Positions 1,058 through 32,000 of a stretch of DNA of 32,000 bases are shown here, piece by piece. The stretch spans positions 1 through 32,000 of the forward strand of contig JAJRVL010000009.1 of NCBI GenBank assembly GCA_024277355.1. The letters are read 5' to 3'. The translations under genes and the position numbers were made by a program. A model generated the notes under the pieces. The model made no database searches and was not told the DNA's origin. It worked only from the letters and a program-made list of their open reading frames with translations. Source of the DNA: an archaeon (GTDB lineage Archaea; Iainarchaeota; Iainarchaeia; Iainarchaeales; 1-14-0-10-31-34). Position 1 is the first letter of the stretch; each line of letters begins with the position of its first letter.

Positions 1058-1060
1058 ACT

Positions 1061-1143
1061 GCAGAGGTGGCGGAGCGGTTTAACGCGCCGGCCTTGAGAG
1101 CCGGTGTCCTTTGGACGCGCGAGTTCGAATCTCGTCCTCTGCG
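1061..1143 (+). tRNA. tRNA-Ser(UGA), class II with long variable arm
   Basis: Acceptor gcagagg/cctctgc, anticodon stem ccggc/gccgg with loop cTTGAga, variable stem gtcc/ggac, T arm gcgag-ttcgaat-ctcgt, discriminator G. Confidence 0.9.
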
Positions 1144-1258
1144 TTCGCGCTTTCGAGCGCGAGAACCGAAGCACTGCCTTCGCTGTTGCTCGGCAGAGCA
1201 TGCACAGCTTTATGCTGTGCACTGGTGCCAGCTGACAGAGGCAGTTGATGTGATGTGA
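1144..1258 (+). other. GC-rich structured trailer downstream of tRNA-Ser(UGA), function unknown
   Basis: About 115 nt that is clearly more GC-rich than its surroundings. Hairpins: tcgcgc-tttcga-gcgcga, ctgcc..ggcag, and a perfect 9-bp stem gtgcacagc-tttat-gctgtgcac followed by CTG. Track ORFs 995..1258 and 1080..1340 are artefacts of this region. Confidence 0.4.
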
Positions 1259-6550: not shown

Positions 6551-6605
6551 GTTTTTGCTTTAGCAAAAACCGTTTTTTGATTAAACTTTTTTTTGAAAAA
6601 AGTTT
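6551..6605. repeat. Composite palindromic element (B + A hairpins) ending 3 nt before tRNA-Ser(GGA)
   Basis: gtttttgctttagcaaaaac (6551-6570), then cgttttttgatt, then aaacttttttttgaaaaaagttt (6583-6605). The architecture and the ...aaaagtttact|gcagagg junction match those at 1007-1060. Confidence 0.7.
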
Positions 6606-6608
6606 ACT

Positions 6609-6692
6609 GCAGAGGTGGCTGAGTGGTTAAAAGCGCCAGCTTGGAAAGCTGGTATCTTCACGGATACGCGAGTTCGAATCTCGTCCTCTGCG
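6609..6692 (+). tRNA. tRNA-Ser(GGA), class II
   Basis: Acceptor and T arm are identical to the tRNA-Ser at 1061. Anticodon stem ccagc/gctgg with loop tTGGAaa. Confidence 0.9.
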
Positions 6693-6747
6693 TTCCGAGC
6701 TACTCCTCGGAAGGGAGCGTGCTATCTTACGATAGCACTGCATAAAC
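6693..6747 (+). other. Conserved double-hairpin 3' trailer (H1 ttccgag-ctactc-ctcggaa; H2 tgctatc-ttac-gatagca; then CTGCATAAAC)
   Basis: It starts directly after the tRNA discriminator. Its H2 sequence and the downstream CTGC.ATAAAC are shared with the trailers at 8779-8843, 21713-21766 (-) and 28373-28429 (-). Confidence 0.6.
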
Positions 6748-8565: not shown

Positions 8566-8636
8566 AATAATATTAATTAAGTGTCTTGTAATTTAAAAGG
8601 TTTTTTTAATTTTATTTATTATAATAAATTATTTCT

Positions 8637-8719
8637 GCAGGGTTAGCCAAGCGGTCAACGGCGGTAGGTTGAGGGCCTATGACTTAGTGTCTACGGGGGT
8701 TCGAATCCTCCACTCTGCA
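8637..8719 (+). tRNA. tRNA-Leu(GAG), class II
   Basis: Acceptor gcagggt/actctgc (one G-U), D stem gcc/ggc, anticodon stem gtagg/cctat with loop ttGAGgg, variable stem gac/gtc, T arm ggggg-ttcgaat-cctcc, discriminator A. Confidence 0.9.
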
Positions 8720-8720
8720 A

Positions 8721-8750
8721 TTTTTGATCAAACTTTTTTTTAAAAAGTTT
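8721..8750. repeat. A-type palindromic unit between tRNA-Leu and a duplicated tRNA 3' fragment
   Basis: tttttgatcaaacttttttttaaaaagttt. Confidence 0.7.
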
Positions 8751-8778
8751 GCGGGCAGTTTGAATCCTCCACTCTGCA
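8751..8778 (+). pseudogene. Relic copy of the tRNA-Leu 3' end (T loop + acceptor 3' strand)
   Basis: gcgggcagtttgaatcctccactctgca versus the genuine acgggggttcgaatcctccactctgca (8693-8719). The last 17 nt are identical, and the relic can no longer form a T stem. Confidence 0.75.
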
Positions 8779-8843
8779 TTAACGGTTTTGTCCGCGAATA
8801 ACGCGTGCTATTTTTGCTTTGCTCAATAGCGCACTGCAATAAA
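8779..8843 (+). other. Double-hairpin trailer, variant with an enlarged H2 loop
   Basis: cgcg-aataa-cgcg, then gtgctatt-tttgctttgctc-aatagcgcac, then TGCAATAAA. The H2 loop sequence recurs at 31950-31975 in the rRNA spacer. Confidence 0.5.
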
Positions 8844-12151: not shown

Positions 12152-12339
12152 GGGCCTGTAGCCTAGTGGATAAGGCATCAGCCTTCTAAACTTTTTTCGC
12201 AAAAAAGTTTAATCAAAAAAACCTTTTTCAAAAAAAGGTTTATCAAAAACGTTTTTGCTTTGCAAAAACTATTGATTTTTTTTGGTTTGGAAATAGTTAA
12301 GATAGCTGAGGATCGTGGGTTCGAATCCTCCCAGGCCCG
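12152..12339 (+). tRNA. tRNA-Arg(UCU) interrupted by a 115-nt intron at the canonical 37/38 position
   Basis: Exon 1 is gggcctg-ta-gcct-agtggata-aggc-a-tcagc-cttcta. Exon 2 is a-gctga-ggatc-gtggg-ttcgaat-cctcc-caggccc-g. Acceptor and anticodon stems are perfect; there is one T-stem mismatch (U50/C64). Confidence 0.85.
12189..12303 (+). other. BHB intron of tRNA-Arg, built almost entirely from three palindromic repeat units
   Basis: BHB: the central helix joins nt 33-35 (ttc) to intron aag (12299-12301). The 3-nt bulges are t-a-a (12187-12189) and a-t-a (12302-12304). The outer helix pairs acttttttc (12190-12198) with ggaaatagt (12289-12297). The body reads aaacttttttcgcaaaaaagttt|aatcaaaaa|aacctttttcaaaaaaaggttt|atcaaaaac|gtttttgctttgcaaaaac. 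Confidence 0.75.
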
Positions 12340-12405
12340 TAAACTTTTAAGAAAATAAGATTTTTGATTGAGTTTGCATTTTGACAGCATGACTGAATGA
12401 AATGA

Positions 12406-12440
12406 AGTCGTGCATCGTTGTGTCGCGGGCGAAACCGGGA
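12406..12440 (+). other. Conserved RNA-flank motif AGTCGTGCATCGT + hairpin with GCGAAA loop
   Basis: agtcgtgcatcgttgtg-tcgcgg-gcgaaa-ccggga here. On the minus strand of the rRNA spacer, agtcgtgcatcgtgct-taaacg-gcgaaa-cgttta occurs at 31862-31895, and the same sequence with a preceding A-T instead of A-G occurs at 31465-31498. The stems differ but keep their pairing. Confidence 0.5.
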
Positions 12441-14285
12441 TCATTTTTCTTTCATTTTAGGATAAATTAAACTAAAGACAATCATTAATACTGCAGGAAC
12501 AACTAATAAAAGTACTTGAGGTAAAAGGAAAAATAAAGGTGTGCCTCTAACTAAAATTGCAGTAATTAATTCTGTTGCAATAGTTAAAGGCAGTATTTCA
12601 CTTATTACTTTTATAAACGGCGGCATAAAAGAAGTAGGCAAAATCATTCCACTCAAAAAAATTAATGGAACAATAATAAGCAAAGATGAAAGTATTGCAG
12701 TTGATTGTGTTTTAGTAAAGTTAGTTAAAAAAATTCCCATTGAAATAAAACTAAAAGAAATTAAAATTAAAACAAAAAATAATTCAATTAAATTTCCTAA
12801 AGGAACTACTCCAAAGCCAACAAAAGCTACAACTAAAATTATTATTGCTTCAATTAAAGCAAAAATCATTTGACCTAAAATTTTTCCTGAAATCCAGGTA
12901 ATACGTAAAGTTGGAGATAATTTTGCTCTTAATTCTGCTCCCTGGTTTTTTTCTAATATAACTGAAATACTAGTCAACAATAAACAAGTTAAAAGCAACA
13001 CTATTGCTATTGCAATTGGAGTTAAAACTGAAACTTCAGTTGATTCATATAATGGTTCTTTTGTTATAGTTAAAGGTCTTACAACTGTTTCAGGAGACAA
13101 AGAACTTAAATTATCTAATTTAGATGAAAGCAACTGCATTTGCTGTTTTGTTTCAGTTAAATCATTTAAAACTGATTCCCTTGATTTTTTTGCTTCAGTT
13201 AACATTAATTTAATTTGATTTAAAGTATTCTGCATTGAATTAACAGTATATTTAAATGACTGAATACTTGAGTTAGCTGAATTTAATTGTATGTCAACTT
13301 CATTTAATTTATTTAAAGTCTGATTTAATTTATTGTTTGTTTCATCTAAGTCAATTAATGCCTGATCTAATTCATTAATTGAAGTGTTTAATTCATTTAT
13401 TACATCAGTTAATTGGTTTTCAATTGGAATTAATTGGGAAGCTATTTCTTCAGGCGAAGAATTTCTAATTGAAGTAATCTGATTTCTTAATGAAGTTAAT
13501 TCATCTCTGTAATAAACTAAATTATTTCTTGTATTTTGTATTTTTGTTCTGTAACCTGAAAGTTTTGATTGCGCTGAATAAATTTCATTTCTTGTATCAC
13601 TAATATCGTTTTTTGCCTGAATATAATATGAATCAAATTCGTTTAGTTGGTTTTGCATTGAAGTTAAGTCAATTTGATTTAATTGGTTTTCTAAATTATT
13701 TAAAGTGAAATAAGATGAATTAAGTTTGTCAATAAAACTATCAATTGTTTTTATTTCTTCTTTTACTGTGCTTTTAATTGACTCTAAATTAGATAAAATT
13801 CCTTTTAAGGTTTCAGTTGCTTTTTTGTGGCTTACTTCACTTAAAATTGTTTGAGTTACAAACAAAGTAACTTGTGTTTCTAATAGGGATGAATTATCAA
13901 ATAAAATTATTGTATCAATTCCAGAATAACTGTTTTTTGGTTCTTTAATTATTATTCCTATTTTTGTTTTTCTTTTTTCTATTGACTGTTTTACTTGTTC
14001 TTCAGAAGAATATCTTACTAAGCGTATTGCTTTATATGAATCTAATTCTGTTAGAAGTCCTTCAATTTCTCCTCCAAAAATAGTTGAATTATTATCATTA
14101 TTATTTGGAATATAAACTGCTACATCCATTTCTGAAAAACCTGTTCCAGTAAAAATATTTACGTTTCCAAAAGCAACTCCAATAGCTAAAATAGTTATAA
14201 TTGGAAAAAATAAAATTAAAAGCATTGAAATTTTCTGTGTTTTAATTAACTTTAATTCTTTTGCTGCAATTTTCAGTAATTTCAT
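12441..14285 (-). CDS. ABC-2 type exporter permease with a large extracytoplasmic coiled-coil insert (YhgE/Pip-like architecture)
   Basis: One N-terminal TM helix, about 380 aa of N/Q/S/L-rich coiled-coil repeats, then 5 C-terminal TM helices. It lies immediately downstream of the ABC ATPase. Confidence 0.75.
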   Translation of the reverse strand: MKLLKIAAKELKLIKTQKISMLLILFFPIITILAIGVAFGNVNIFTGTGFSEMDVAVYIPNNNDNNSTIFGGEIEGLLTELDSYKAIRLVRYSSEEQVKQSIEKRKTKIGIIIKEPKNSYSGIDTIILFDNSSLLETQVTLFVTQTILSEVSHKKATETLKGILSNLESIKSTVKEEIKTIDSFIDKLNSSYFTLNNLENQLNQIDLTSMQNQLNEFDSYYIQAKNDISDTRNEIYSAQSKLSGYRTKIQNTRNNLVYYRDELTSLRNQITSIRNSSPEEIASQLIPIENQLTDVINELNTSINELDQALIDLDETNNKLNQTLNKLNEVDIQLNSANSSIQSFKYTVNSMQNTLNQIKLMLTEAKKSRESVLNDLTETKQQMQLLSSKLDNLSSLSPETVVRPLTITKEPLYESTEVSVLTPIAIAIVLLLTCLLLTSISVILEKNQGAELRAKLSPTLRITWISGKILGQMIFALIEAIIILVVAFVGFGVVPLGNLIELFFVLILISFSFISMGIFLTNFTKTQSTAILSSLLIIVPLIFLSGMILPTSFMPPFIKVISEILPLTIATELITAILVRGTPLFFLLPQVLLLVVPAVLMIVFSLIYPKMKEK

Positions 14286-21712: not shown

Positions 21713-21766
21713 GTTATAGCAGTGCTATCAAAGATAGCTCATCGTAGCCGCCAGCCAAAACTGGCG
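21713..21766 (-). other. Conserved double-hairpin trailer downstream of RNase P RNA
   Basis: The minus strand reads ccgccag-ttttgg-ctggcgg, ctacgatg, agctatc-tttg-atagc(a)ct, GCTATAAC. It aligns position by position with the 23S trailer at 28373-28429. Confidence 0.6.
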
Positions 21767-22062
21767 GGGTTGTGGAGAGTAAGCCGCTTTTTGTTTTACC
21801 AGCATTCACCTTTGCGTCTTAAAGACTTGCACTCCCAGAACATATTTCATTTCTGTTTAACCTAAAGCACGTTTCATCCTTTTTCCAGAAAACTCACTTA
21901 AAGGTCATCATAATTCTGGAATGGTTTCGTTTCTGCTCTTCAGGAAACCCTCTAAGGTTTGTTTTTGATGAAACTTTTTTTAAAAGTTTCTAGGAATGAG
22001 TGAGCGGACTTTCCTCAGCTCCATTTCGAAAAATGGTACCGTCAGCTGGTCTTCCACTACCC
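21767..22062 (-). ncRNA. rnpB: RNase P RNA
   Basis: The minus strand has CR-I GAGGAAAGTCCG (complement of 22005-22016) and a CR-V-like AAAAAGCGGCTTAC (complement of about 21779-21792). P1 pairs GGGTAGTGGAAG (22062-22051) with CTCTCCACAACCC (21779-21767). P3-like hairpin ccattt-ttcg-aaatgg; P5 CTCAC/GTGAG; internal ACAGAAA. A TTTAAAAA TATA-like box lies about 23-30 nt upstream. Confidence 0.75.
21956..21990. repeat. A-type palindromic unit embedded in the RNase P RNA specificity-domain region
   Basis: The plus strand reads ggtttgtttttgatgaaactttttttaaaagtttc. On the RNA strand it follows CR-I/P5 by about 12 nt. The near-repeat CATTCCTAG / CATTCCAG on the RNA strand brackets it plus 45 nt. Confidence 0.6.
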
Positions 22063-28307: not shown

Positions 28308-28372
28308 AATCTACTGATGTCTAAACTTAAAACAAAAATCTAATTTAAAAAAAATAAGATAGTTGATACAAG

Positions 28373-28429
28373 ATATGACAGCGCTATCGAAGATAGTGCG
28401 TCGTACCCAACAGCCGAAACTGTTGTTGG
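28373..28429 (-). other. Conserved double-hairpin trailer downstream of the 23S rRNA
   Basis: The minus strand reads caacag-tttcgg-ctgttg, ggtacgacg, cactatc-ttcg-atagcg, CTGTCATATC. The 5' side of H1 overlaps the outer helix of the BHB. Confidence 0.6.
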
Positions 28430-28450
28430 CATGAAACCCAAATTAAAGAG
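28426..28450 (-). promoter_or_regulatory. 3' strand of the 23S processing stem with BHB bulge
   Basis: Minus strand CTCTTTAATTTG-G-GTTT-[CAT]-GCCAA pairs with the leader strand at 31429-31453. Confidence 0.75.
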
Positions 28451-31441
28451 TTTGAACTCAAGTTTTTAGTAGCAGTCAACTTAATATGTCGCCGTAGCTT
28501 CATACTTACATTTCTGCCCTATCAATCCAGTGTTCTACTGGTACTCTTGTCCTTATTCCTTATATTCCGCAGAATACAAGTAGTCAGGAATGATTGACTC
28601 TTTTTAGGGACCGCTTCAAGCTTAGATGCTTTCAGCTTTTATCGGTTCCGGCGTGGCTACCCAGCAACTGCCTTGTCAGACAACTGGTACACTAGAGGCC
28701 AGGACTCCACGTTCCTCTCGTACTTATGGAATCTTCCCCTCAGTCAATCGACATGTCCGATAGATAGGATCCAAACTGGCTCGCACCGTTCTTAACCCAA
28801 CTAACGTAAGGCTTTAATGAGTTAACACCTCCACCCTTGGCAGCTTATGCACTGCCAGGATGCCTTGAGACGACGGCGAGGTCGCAAACCGCGGGGTCGA
28901 TATGAGCTCTTGCCCGCGACCACTCAATTACCCCCAAGATAAGTTCACTGTTAGACTAGGCCCCCATTAAAAGGGACACTAGCGTTCGCTAGACACATCT
29001 TTCGATTCGGCTTTACTTGCTGTGCGTAAAACCGTCAAGCATGCTTTTGGTCTTGTCCTCTAAGGAGAATTTCTGACTCTCCTGAGCATACCTTTGGACA
29101 CCCCTGATATCTTTTCAGGGGTGTACCGCCCCAGTCCAACTACCCGTCTAAAGCTGTCCTCTTTCGAGTGAGCAATATGCTTTTTTAAGGATGGTGTTCC
29201 ATTGTTGTCTCCACAATTCCTGACGAAACTGCTTCGAAGACTACCATCTACACTGGACGTAAAAAACCATATTACAACATCAGATTGTAGTAAACCTCTG
29301 TGGGGTCTTCTCTTCCCATCGGACATTCGAGGTATATTCACCTCGCAATGAGTTCATTGGGCCCAAATTAGGGACAGTGGGAATCTCGTTACTTCATTGG
29401 TGCAAGCCGGCATTAAACCGGCAAGGTATTACGCTACCGTGAGAGCCTCAGAGTTAGGCCCGCTCTTCACCAGAGCTTAGCTCCATTGAACTGAAGTTTA
29501 ACTTACTGGCAGTGAGCAGAAGTCAGCCTCTATACACACCATTGCTGGCTTGCAGAGACCTGTGTTTTTGTTAAACAGTCGGACTCCCTTTGTCATTGAA
29601 ACCTGCAATTTACTTAATCGCAGGCACCCCTTATACCGAAGATACAGGGCTATTTTGCCGAATTCCCTTAATTTGGTTTCCCCAAGACGCCTAGGCCTTT
29701 TCAGCCAGGGGCACTTTTCCTAGTTCTTGGTACGGTTACATAAAATCCATTCTGATTTCCTTTTTATGAAACCCAGGCCTCAATTGAAAATTGCTTCTAT
29801 TCCTGAATTTAATCTGCTTCTCATCATTACAATTCTCCACAGATTTATTTCAGTTAAATGCACAGACAAGTGCATTCAATCTAGCCCAAGCTGTTAGAAA
29901 TCAGACTATCGTTGCCGTGAGTATTTATGTAGTACAGGAATATGAACCTGTTTCCCTTTCGTCCACGTCGTGTTACGAGTGGCCTTAGGACCGACTAACC
30001 CTTAGCTAATGATTAGCGCTAAGGAACCCTTGCCCTTTCGGCGGAAAGAATTCTCATCTTTCTATTGTTATTACTAGCGCGAGGATCCATATTCGCGACA
30101 GATCCACAAGAAATTTCTCTCTTGCTTCTGCTCTATCGTGACACCTCCCTACTCCATTTGTTTTCTATTGAAAACAAGGCTATGGTATCGGCAGCTGGTT
30201 TTAGCCCAGTGAATTTTCAAGACCTTTATTCTAGGTAGGTGAGCTGTTACGCACTCTTTAAAGGATGGCTGCTTCTAAGCAAACCTCCCTACTGTATTAG
30301 AACAAAGATACTTTTCGTGTTTACACTTAACCAGCATTTTTGGGCCTTAACCACAGTTTAGGTTGTTCCCTTCTTGGAACAAGGGCTTACCCCTTGCCCC
30401 CTACTCTAACCTTCTACGACGATTATAGATTTGGAGTTTAACGAAAAAGCTGGAAGTTTCCGACCAGTACTTTCTAATTAGTATCTCGACACCATAATCT
30501 ATCTCCAGTTAGGCTAGCCTTAGGGCTAATTCGAGAGGAGCCCGCTATGGCCATGTTCGATTGGCATTTAACTCCTACTCCCAGGTCACCAAAGTAGATA
30601 GACTAACACTTGTTGCGGACCTCCACCATTTTGTAAAACGGCTTCATCCTGCCCAGGAGTAACTCACATGGCTTCGGGTCTTACCGTTGTGACTAAAGCA
30701 GTTTAATACTTTCAGCCTGATTCTAAAAGAACTGCGCTGACTCGCTTTCGCTGCGGTTTCAAAGTGAAAACTTCTTAACCTTGCCACAAAGGCAACCTCC
30801 CCCGCTCGTGATTCAAGACGAACGATATGACACTGATCAAATTCTTTCGTAATTATTTCTCAATAACTTCCTTCAAGAATTCTCTTTTCTTTAATGCCAT
30901 ATCTTGCTATAACCAGTTAGTTTCAAGCGCTTTTAACTCCCTGTTAAGGGTACTTTTCAACTTTCCCTCGCGGTACTAGTATGCTATCGGACTTGAGTAG
31001 TATTTAGTGTTAGGAGTTAATGTCTCCCGTATTCACGCGCAAAAACCAATGCACGCTACTCTTAACACGAAAAATTATCCTTTTGAATTTTTTGTTTACA
31101 AGGCTTTCACTCTCTTTGGCGCTGCTTTCCAGCAGACTTCAACTAAATTTAAAGGATATAAATCGCTCTACACCACATCTCCCTTAAATTACTTTAAGGG
31201 ATTCAGTTTGCTCTCTTCTGTCTTCGGTCGACCCTAATAACAGAATCATATTCATTTTCTTTTCCTTCAGGTACTAAGATGCTTCAATTCCCTGAGTTGC
31301 CCTTCCTTTCGGAATAATTCAGAAATCCCTGGCTCAAAGATTGCATTGCATCTCACCAAGGCTTATCGCAGCTTGCCACGTCCTTCATCAGCTCTCAAGC
31401 CTAGTTATCCACTAACTGGCGTAATGAACTCTTTAATTTGA
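28434..31441 (-). rRNA. rrl: 23S (LSU) rRNA, about 3.0 kb, no large intron evident
   Basis: On the minus strand: 5' region GATGAAGGACGTGGCAAGCTGCGATAAGCC (complement of 31361-31390), sarcin-ricin loop AGTACGAGAGGAAC (complement of 28711-28724), and 3' region GCTGAAAGCATCTAAGC (complement of 28620-28636). The ends are set by the BHB bulges. Confidence 0.9.
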
Positions 31442-31453
31442 TAGGTTTGCCAA
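31429..31453 (-). promoter_or_regulatory. 5' strand of the 23S processing stem with BHB bulge
   Basis: Minus strand TTGGC-AAAC-[CTA]-T-CAAATTAAAGAG. There are 12 bp plus one G-U, a 3-nt bulge, a 4-bp helix, a 3-nt bulge on the other strand, then a 5-bp helix. Confidence 0.75.
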
Positions 31454-31464
31454 TGCATCAACCG

Positions 31465-31496
31465 TAAACGTTTCGCCGTTTAAGCACGATGCACGA
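31465..31496. repeat. 32-bp exact direct repeat, copy A (just upstream of the 23S processing stem)
   Basis: taaacgtttcgccgtttaagcacgatgcacga, identical to 31862-31893. Confidence 0.9.
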
Positions 31497-31704
31497 TTTC
31501 GCTTGCGCTCAATCCTGCTGCCTTAACAGCAAAAGTTTCTAACGATTGCTTCCCAAAGGAAAAAAACTTCCCAGGTGCATTCATCTGTTGTGAAAATAAT
31601 AAATTGATGAATATAATTTTTGTGATAATTTTTTTTTATGCTTAATACTTTTATTTTATTTTTTTAAATTTTTTTCTTGTTTATTTTCCAAACTATTTTT
31701 TTTA

Positions 31705-31786
31705 TTTTTTGATACAACTTTTTCTAAAAGTTGTTTTTGATCAAACTTTTTTTTGTTTTTGATAAACCTTTTTTCTAAAAAGGTTT
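31705..31786. repeat. Array of three A-type palindromic units abutting the 3' end of tRNA-Ala
   Basis: ttttttgatacaactttttctaaaagttg | tttttgatcaaactttttttt (left arm only) | gtttttgataaaccttttttctaaaaaggttt. Confidence 0.7.
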
Positions 31787-31787
31787 A

Positions 31788-31861
31788 TGGACTCAACGGG
31801 ATTCGAACCCGTGGCCTCCTCGTTGCAAACGAGGCGCTCTACCAAGCTGAGCTATGAGCCC
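31788..31861 (-). tRNA. tRNA-Ala(UGC) in the 16S-23S spacer
   Basis: The minus strand reads gggctca-ta-gctc-agcttggta-gagc-g-cctcg-ttTGCaa-cgagg-aggcc-acggg-ttcgaat-cccgt-tgagtcc-a. The G3:U70 identity pair is present. 74 nt. Confidence 0.92.
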
Positions 31862-31893
31862 TAAACGTTTCGCCGTTTAAGCACGATGCACGA
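31862..31893. repeat. 32-bp exact direct repeat, copy B (abutting the 5' end of tRNA-Ala)
   Basis: Identical to 31465-31496. Weaker similarity continues for about 20 nt beyond it. Confidence 0.9.
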
Positions 31894-32000
31894 CTTTCAG
31901 TCGAGCTTGCTCCGCAACAGCTGTCGCGCTCAGCTGGCATGCGTGCAATATCTTTGCTTTTGCTCGATATAGCATCATTCAGCTTAAATCTTGAGTAAAT

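Follow-up and report, generated by a model that had tools for sequence, protein, structure and literature searches.

A family of GC-rich structured repeats at stable-RNA ends, in tRNA introns and in a pilin-like gene of an Iainarchaeota archaeon

The window, i.e. the whole 32,000-nucleotide stretch analysed here (C7:1-32000), lies on one contig of an 11-contig, 1.13-Mb genome of Iainarchaeota (DPANN) with 28% GC and a completeness of 96%. This genome is designated G000 and its congeners G001 to G005. The RNA genes of the window, assigned with ARAGORN and Rfam, are listed in Table 1 together with the repeat copies. A preliminary description of this DNA had reported that four stable RNAs are directly followed by the same pair of hairpins, H1 and H2. 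All four copies are indeed present, behind tRNA-Ser(GGA), a tRNA-Leu relic, RNase P RNA and 23S rRNA, and the H2 pattern is matched six times in the window against 0.03 matches expected. Copies 1, 3 and 4 fold well beyond shuffled sequences (z-scores in Table 1). Copy 2 has a decayed H1 and folds no better than its shuffles; an AT-rich palindrome separates the tRNA-Leu(GAG) gene from the relic that precedes this copy. A similar tRNA-Leu 3'-end fragment stands ahead of an element copy in the congener G001 (L006). Judged from the arrangement at 8636-8843 of the window and from that in G001, a tRNA 3' end and its trailer may be duplicated as one unit.

Table 1. Position of the RNA genes, repeat copies and 23S processing strands in the window (R1, score with covariance model R1; z, fold z-score against shuffled sequences)
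Feature	Position	Strand	Details
tRNA-Ser(UGA)	1060-1144		ARAGORN/Rfam
Full-length version, trailer of tRNA-Ser(UGA)	1145-1258	+	H1, long-loop H2, H3, tail
H3 and tail of the full-length version		+	H3 TGCACAGC-TTTA-TGCTGTGCA; tail CCAGCTGACAGAGGCAG
AT-rich family sites	6583-6605, 8727-8750, 31690-31780		second repeat family
tRNA-Ser(GGA)	6608-6693		ARAGORN/Rfam
Copy 1, trailer of tRNA-Ser(GGA)	6693-6747	+	starts 0 nt past the tRNA; R1 48.5 bits, z = -5.1
Copy 1 H1	6693-6712	+	7 bp, loop CTACTC; linker 6713-6718
Copy 1 H2	6719-6738	+	GTGCTATC-TTAC-GATAGCAC; tail TGCATAAAC
tRNA-Leu(GAG)	8636-8720		ARAGORN/Rfam
tRNA-Leu 3'-end relic	8753-8779	+	27 nt, degenerate duplicate of the last ~25 nt of tRNA-Leu(GAG)
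Copy 2, behind the tRNA-Leu 3'-end relic	8780-8843	+	R1 30.1 bits, z = 0
Copy 2 H2, long-loop form	TGCTATT 8806-8812 / AATAGCG 8825-8831	+	12-nt loop TTTGCTTTGCTC
tRNA-Arg with intron	12152-12339		ARAGORN/Rfam
Long-loop copy	12378-12440	-	0 nt past the stop of a 614-aa ORF, 12441-14285 (-), sense to the ORF
Copy 3, trailer of RNase P RNA	21713-21767	-	starts 1 nt past the gene; R1 65.2 bits, z = -3.1
Copy 3 stems		-	H1 CCGCCAG-TTTTGG-CTGGCGG; H2 GCTATC-TTT-GATAGC
RNase P RNA	21768-22061	-	ARAGORN/Rfam
AT-rich palindrome and CATCAAAAAC in the RNase P RNA gene	21961-21990	-	second repeat family (AAACTTTT..AAAAGTTT ATCAAAA)
Copy 4, 23S trailer	28372-28425	-	R1 69.2 bits, z = -3.7
Copy 4 H1		-	CAACAG-TTTCGG-CTGTTG, directly outside the outer helix of the 23S BHB stem
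23S stem, trailer strand	28426-28451	-	13-bp helix, GGTT central helix, TCA bulge, TGCCAA outer helix
23S rRNA	28443-31436	-	ARAGORN/Rfam
23S stem, leader strand	31428-31453	-	TTGGCA outer helix, AACC central helix, TAT bulge, 13-bp helix
Long-loop family copy, 23S leader distal to the BHB	31465-31527	+	R1 42.1 bits
tRNA-Ala(UGC)	31788-31861	-	ARAGORN/Rfam
Two reverse-complement copies, 16S-tRNA-Ala spacer	31862-31907, 31929-31975	+	

Elsewhere in G000, the tRNA-Lys with a 403-nt intron called by ARAGORN (C9:33821-34313) lies inside a coding sequence and looks like a false call, and the tRNA-Ser(AGA) with a 128-nt intron at C2:313782-313983 reads as tRNA-Asp(GUC) with its intron at the canonical position. 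ARAGORN found no tRNA-Trp, tRNA-Pro(UGG) or tRNA-Gln(CUG), which may be intron-bearing genes that it missed. The same tRNA-Phe with its flanks occurs at the end of C9 (111126-111201) and at the start of C11 (106-181); the two contigs probably overlap.

Collection of copies with a covariance model, R1, and an iterated nhmmer profile yielded 45 copies in the genome. The 55-nt short-loop double hairpin is one subfamily of a dispersed, GC-rich structured repeat. Its unit consists of H1 (6-7 bp with a 6-nt loop), a linker containing ACGN, the complement of the H1 loop, H2 (7-8 bp, with either a short loop of 3-4 nt or a longer, conserved one of 12-15 nt) and a CTG tail. The long H2 loop, seen on inspection of all tRNA flanks, is (A)TTCGCTTYGCTCA and replaces the 3-4-nt loop. 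Longer copies, of up to ~115 nt, add an H3 with a TTTA loop, a fourth hairpin and the CCAGCTGACAGAGGCAG tail. The longer trailer at 1144-1258, previously noted for an analogous hairpin, belongs to the same family as a full-length, four-hairpin version, whose H3 and tail recur in the DnaG/tRNA-Val spacer and in tRNA introns. All hairpins lie within the unit, which has no TIR at its borders, and nothing resembles a TSD apart from a possible GGCAG repeat at the pilin site described below. Some copies are nested within the hairpin loops of other copies, and decayed examples occur, such as copy 2 of the window and the H2 in the DnaG spacer of G003. Most copies are single, and several forward/reverse or tail-to-tail pairs are found, at Met/Glu, Ser/Leu, Gly/Gly and Val-GAC/ORF430.

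Both hairpins are real, as judged from the fold z-scores and from the covariation in two alignments. In the alignment of 13 copies from G000 itself, 94% of the cells are paired and 12 of the 15 pairs show a compensatory change, a result equalled by none of 500 shuffles. When 57 distinct copies collected from six congeners are aligned with a model, 94.8% of the cells are paired and compensatory changes are present at all 14 pairs, so that the covariation first proposed as a check on H1 supports both hairpins. The H1 loop and the linker covary as well: their mean best complement is 3.27, compared with 2.76 after permutation, and none of 2000 permutations reached the observed value. The pairs concerned include TCG/CGA, GCGT/ACGC, CCGT/ACGG, ACCT/AGGT, CACTG/CAGTG and GCAAATTC/GAATTTG. 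Conserved unpaired motifs are the TTTCGN loop, the linker ACG and the CTG tail. A C/D-box or K-turn formed by the linker and the CTG tail was rejected upon inspection of the alignments, in which the boxes are not conserved, and a guide-RNA role of the long H2 loop was discarded for want of complementarity, with at most two mismatches, to 16S rRNA, 23S rRNA or RNase P RNA.

The sequence of H2, initially taken to be conserved, is so within the short-loop subfamily but not across the family. Many copies share the GCTATC/GATAGC stem as one subtype, and CACCAC/GTGGCG, CACGAC/GTCGTG, GCGCAAC/GTTGCGC and TCCGGC/GCCGGA occur at the same place in other copies. Since H2 covaries fully in these other copies, its interpretation as a fixed protein operator was rejected. 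With respect to known families, no Rfam model reached its gathering score at the element in the window, none gave E <= 0.1 in five copy-bearing loci and none matched in 20 loci of relatives. These results agree with the initial remark that the element was not recognised as a described one, and our literature searches returned no description of the element family in DPANN archaea.

The stems are almost exclusively made of Watson-Crick pairs. Watson-Crick pairs account for 713 of 763 stem cells, G-U pairs for 10 and A-C mismatches for 8 (each of the latter two types ~1%), so that G-U pairs are no commoner than A-C mismatches, and there is no strand bias. A signal read on a single RNA strand is expected to tolerate G-U far above A-C. 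The equal rarity of the two thus indicates that complementarity is kept on both strands, which fits elements that have to fold in either orientation, or that arise or are selected as DNA palindromes, and is at odds with a signal carried by one RNA strand.

About 27 of the 45 copies (~60%) are located in tRNA, rRNA or RNase P units, which represent ~4% of the genes. Eleven begin 0-1 nt past the mature 3' ends of tRNAs or RNase P RNA, and further copies lie behind tRNA-Asp, tRNA-Pro and the tRNA-Leu relic. Reverse-complement copies adjoin the 5' ends of tRNA-Gly(UCC), tRNA-Ala(UGC) (at 0 nt, the copy at 31862-31907) and tRNA-Leu(CAG), and are also present upstream of tRNA-Ser(GCU), tRNA-Asn, tRNA-Thr and tRNA-Glu; tRNA-Ser(GCU) has copies on both sides. 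H1 always faces the gene boundary, at a distance of 0-3 nt, including in the reverse-complement leaders. Three tRNA introns (Arg-GCG, Asn and Tyr) largely consist of one copy each, oriented forward when beside the 5' exon and reversed when beside the 3' exon. Past the stop codons of protein genes, eight sense copies occur within 40 nt, five of them at -2 to +2 nt, and in two of the eight the element completes the TAA; the orientation downstream of genes is biased to sense. Two tandem antisense copies are found inside the 5' end of a pilin-like ORF. The ends of 5S rRNA, SRP RNA and 16S rRNA in the genome carry no copy, nor do about two thirds of the tRNAs, all of whose flanks were inspected. 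The preliminary description anticipated that a genome scan would find the motif downstream of most stable-RNA genes: strong enrichment at stable-RNA ends is found, but most tRNAs, 5S, SRP RNA and 16S lack it. Given these gaps and the other contexts, the association with stable RNAs is real yet neither general nor exclusive.

The proposal of a processing or termination signal specific to stable RNAs does not survive this distribution, with copies past stop codons, in introns, in the pilin-like ORF and antisense at 5' ends. The T-run, formerly counted as part of the tail, is uncoupled from the element: a run of five or more T lies within 45 nt of 10 of 23 sense-trailer copies, compared with 32% of random 45-mers. 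As T-runs are not enriched and copies also reside in introns and in an ORF, the reading as an oligo-T terminator is rejected.

When the 23S trailer is cofolded with the leader (31440-31453), a textbook bulge-helix-bulge (BHB) site is obtained, whose trailer strand (28426-28451) is outside the repeat; the BHB is built by sequence proximal to the element. The H1 of copy 4 begins at the very next base outside the BHB stem, and this copy therefore sits in the discarded pre-23S flank. The long-loop copy in the 23S leader (31465-31527) is a reverse complement within the minus-strand rRNA transcript, and its linker can pair with that of copy 4. One may therefore ask whether a forward trailer copy pairs with a reverse-complement leader copy, belonging either to its own gene or to the one that follows in a polycistron, as two halves of an rRNA-like helix that would be recognised by the splicing endonuclease or another double-strand-specific nuclease. 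We regard this as distinctly improbable. Leader and trailer copies are ~75-100% complementary, the linkers and tails of the 23S copies can pair around the canonical BHB, and potential partners flank tRNA-Ser(GCU) or stand back to back at Met/Glu, Ser/Leu and Gly/Gly; most tRNAs and RNase P RNA, however, have a copy on one side only, and the copies behind protein genes, in the pilin-like gene and in introns have no partner. The BHB of 23S arises from other, proximal sequence, and inspection of tRNA ends with an element revealed no BHB built by it. In the element-bearing introns, the BHB is formed by the anticodon loop and the 3' end of the intron, and the element occupies the intron interior. 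Ordinary end processing is moreover available, since the genome encodes both RNase P RNA and the splicing endonuclease EndA. The tRNAs adjoining element copies are full length, and a split or permuted tRNA was therefore rejected as the explanation for the element.

A second repeat family is AT-rich and consists of a palindrome AAACTTTTTT..AAAAAAGTTT followed by ATCAAAA or, where it lies upstream of a gene, preceded by TTTTGAT. It is found directly upstream of several tRNAs, downstream of others and in the 16S-23S spacer, and a good part of the large tRNA introns (43-149 nt) is made of it, the family being present in most tRNA introns of the genome. The AT-rich copy in the RNase P RNA gene is private to G000.

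Comparison with relatives shows where the GC-rich element has remained and where it has changed. R1 finds 14-59 copies per genome within the genus and 0-33, mostly 0-7, elsewhere in the order; all five congeners carry the exact H2 motif, as does one other genus of 35. The best matches in distant families adjoin tRNA ends (five reverse-complement copies at 5' ends, one trailer and one intronic copy), and the rule that H1 lies next to the boundary also holds there. The 3' flank of RNase P RNA varies within the genus: G002 carries a double hairpin with another H1, whereas the G004 flank begins with AT palindromes and then has the long-loop form; the copies of G005 are antisense, that of G001 is partial and G003 retains a remnant, and the element is absent from this flank in other genera. 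Another subtype, an antisense copy or nothing at the same flank in sister species, with no coupling to T-runs, again speaks against the initially proposed end signal. At tRNA-Gln, G004 has an array and G000 has none; an exact insertion junction could not be defined between the two, as the downstream genes are not homologous.

The pilin orthologue contains no copy in G004 (start MKGQVTAEF), one in G003, one in G005, two in G000 and at least four in G002, whose leader reaches 95 residues; all copies are antisense and in-frame, contain no stop and have their end at the RGQ cleavage motif. In the RNase P RNA genes of the congeners (L061, L064, L058, L062 and L059) and of G000, the hairpin ACCATTTT-TCGAAATGG is plain in G000 and in one of the G002 copies (G002b) and carries 55-60-nt GC-rich inserts in five other genes; the insert of G005 is a member of the family (nhmmer 4.7e-7). 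Such filled and empty sites among congeners indicate insertion or expansion. RNase P RNA ranges from 271 to 384 nt within the genus, a variation caused by repeat insertions at two or three peripheral sites, and G002 has two RNase P RNA genes.

Two sites show persistence. Past the exonuclease-like gene, an intact copy lies 0-1 nt after the stop in four of six congeners, each time as another variant, and in the DnaG/tRNA-Val spacer the four-hairpin version is kept in four of six. Such persistence of position despite sequence turnover requires either selection on the fold or steady replacement from active copies. Downstream of the exonuclease-like gene and its element, four congeners share a further hairpin with conserved flanks, GCGCTTTGC-TTTT-GCAAAGCGC (G000 C2:188330-188380, L075 ~2170-2220, with orthologues in L076-L078), which may be an unannotated small RNA or another repeat.

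The persistence just described could reflect a functional module of RNA ends, in which H1, the loop-linker pseudoknot and H2 are co-transcribed at the ends of stable RNAs or mRNAs and act in cis as an exonuclease barrier, as a structure on which tRNase Z, RNase P or another factor docks or measures, or as a folding insulator that prevents wrong pairing between AT-rich flanks and the stable RNA. Such a module would extend the initial proposal to mRNAs. The spacing is certainly tight, at 0-1 nt from the mature ends of 11 RNA genes and 0-2 nt past five stops, and the sense bias downstream of genes, the H1-proximal rule in distant families, the covarying loop-linker pairing with its conserved TTTCGN, ACG and CTG, and the positions kept in four of six congeners at both sites are all in keeping with such a role. 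Nevertheless, we consider it unlikely. The module would be missing from 5S, SRP RNA, 16S and about two thirds of the tRNAs, as well as from the many genomes of the order with no match, and in congeners the flank of RNase P RNA varies, has antisense copies or lacks the element. It would make no sense inside introns, the RNase P RNA of sister species or the coding region of a signal peptide, and a reverse-complement copy is a different RNA. Furthermore, G-U pairs are not favoured over A-C mismatches, T-runs are uncoupled, and, on structural grounds, a connection of 2-3 nt from H1 to the linker pairing would be very short for crossing a helix of 6-7 bp.

Based on the above data, we favour, with somewhat more confidence than doubt, a model in which the element is an insertion-prone, RPE/REP-like palindromic structured repeat that is tolerated at places lost during the processing of RNA or protein. 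Rather than a dedicated stable-RNA end signal, it is probably a small selfish element, because its ~45 copies are mostly found in stretches that are later cut away. Copies would accumulate at sites removed by the host, namely trailers, the flanks of the 23S BHB, tRNA leaders and introns, hairpin loops at the periphery of RNase P RNA, the bases directly past stop codons and, in-frame, the cleaved signal peptide of pilin. The four window copies would be co-transcribed with their RNA and then discarded by tRNase Z, by the splicing endonuclease in the case of 23S, or by 3' trimming, travelling as passengers that instruct neither processing nor termination. We infer both that the element is selfish or neutral and that its copies are removed at the RNA level.

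The way in which such an element might spread is less straightforward. As candidate routes, copies may recombine with one another or may be inserted with hairpin loops and ends as targets. Searches of the genome, which is 96% complete, gave no match to PF01797 (Y1/RAYT), while the positive controls were matched, and none to PF07282 (TnpB) or PF00078 (reverse transcriptase). The REP/RAYT, IS200/IS605-TnpB and retro-element readings were rejected for lack of matches to these three domains, and with neither a TIR nor a clear TSD, nor any Y1, TnpB or RT, the element does not qualify as a MITE. The lack of such genes also counts against insertion. Moreover, an H1 that faces the boundary at 0-3 nt calls for either a very precise target preference or a function, and loop-linker covariation is more typical of a folded functional RNA.

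The near-exclusive Watson-Crick pairing without strand asymmetry and the use of both orientations could also point to a site at the DNA level, i.e. palindromes bound or cut by a DNA enzyme, be it a REP-like system with a tyrosine transposase, an Xer-like site or a cruciform or insulator. The inverted doublets resemble REPINs, copies are inserted into the loops of other copies and of RNase P RNA, and the genome encodes one tyrosine (Xer-like) recombinase. This enzyme, however, is probably the one that ordinarily serves in chromosome resolution, genes for Y1/RAYT and TnpB are lacking, and loop-linker covariation is hard to explain in duplex DNA. In addition, H2 has no fixed sequence across the family and hence offers no common operator. 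Taken together, we give this explanation very little credence.

A more speculative view, which we hold to be doubtful, is that the element is a new mobile module without a transposase, aimed at exposed loops and helix ends, and/or a pseudoknotted RNA cap read by a DPANN-specific factor. On the same tentative footing, the targets of the module would be the anticodon loop, the ends of the acceptor stem, the hairpin loop of RNase P RNA and the loops of its own copies. If the module is what the repeat represents, then the repeat directly creates archaeal tRNA introns, leaders and trailers; if it is the cap, the covarying pairing of H1 loop and linker is a conserved cap at processed RNA ends.

Returning to the insertion-prone repeat that we favour, its behaviour can be compared with that of several known systems. 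The work on the RPEs of Rickettsia is reportedly due to Ogata et al. (2000, 2002). Like RPEs, the element is a short, non-autonomous hairpin repeat of a small AT-rich genome, intergenic and without a linked transposase, that is also found in-frame in a protein gene (here the pilin signal peptide), with filled and empty orthologues, and inside stable RNA genes (RNase P RNA in sister species, and tRNA introns). In PMC2229807, RPEs are described as inserting in-frame in protein genes and also into tmRNA and RNase P RNA. The present element differs in its archaeal host, in its size of ~55 to ~115 nt with two to four separate hairpins instead of one long stem, and in its strong preference for tRNA and rRNA edges and introns, with H1 facing the boundary and a covarying loop and linker. 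The likeness is thus one of behaviour, in that the element works like an RPE, and not one of membership; sequence homology is not to be expected across domains.

With REP/BIME elements and REPINs, the repeat shares its nature as a high-copy imperfect palindrome located just past genes, in several cases as inverted pairs, whose position is partly kept between relatives as the sequence turns over. REP elements can be both selfish and useful, for example as stabilisers of mRNA 3' ends. In contrast to REP elements and REPINs, there is neither a RAYT gene nor a GTAG/CTAC head, and the present element also occurs in introns, RNA genes and an ORF. Another archaeal palindromic repeat family, from a different lineage, is reported to occur within coding sequence; to our knowledge, it has not been associated with introns or with the edges of tRNA or rRNA genes.

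Archaeal precedents concern tRNA introns and leaders. Transposed tRNA introns and the leaders of split tRNAs are said to have been treated by Fujishima et al. (2010) and Randau et al. (2005). The presence of one family in the introns of different tRNAs and in exon flanks implies movement between loci, as in the Thermoproteales, and leader and trailer copies are complementary, as in split tRNAs. Unlike the latter and unlike those introns, the adjoining tRNAs are full length, the element forms no BHB, and it also occurs at the ends of protein genes, in an ORF and in RNase P RNA. In PMC4033280, similar introns in different tRNAs of Thermoproteales are interpreted as intron transposition, and the work on split tRNAs and their leaders is summarised; a model in which mobile elements disrupt tRNA genes has also been proposed (PMC3293823).

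The origin of archaeal tRNA introns, of long leaders and trailers and of split genes is an old question, on which this element family bears: a single family builds tRNA introns, leaders, trailers, extensions of the 23S stem and inserts in RNase P RNA and in a signal peptide. Owing to the filled and empty sites among sister species, the gain of introns through insertion of small repeats is directly testable in Iainarchaeota. For annotation, GC-rich blocks beside tRNA genes of DPANN genomes should not be called new ncRNA genes or terminators, and where pilin-like ORFs are extended by a long N-terminal stretch, this may be an inserted repeat. In these respects, the element stands as an archaeal counterpart to the RPEs of Rickettsia.
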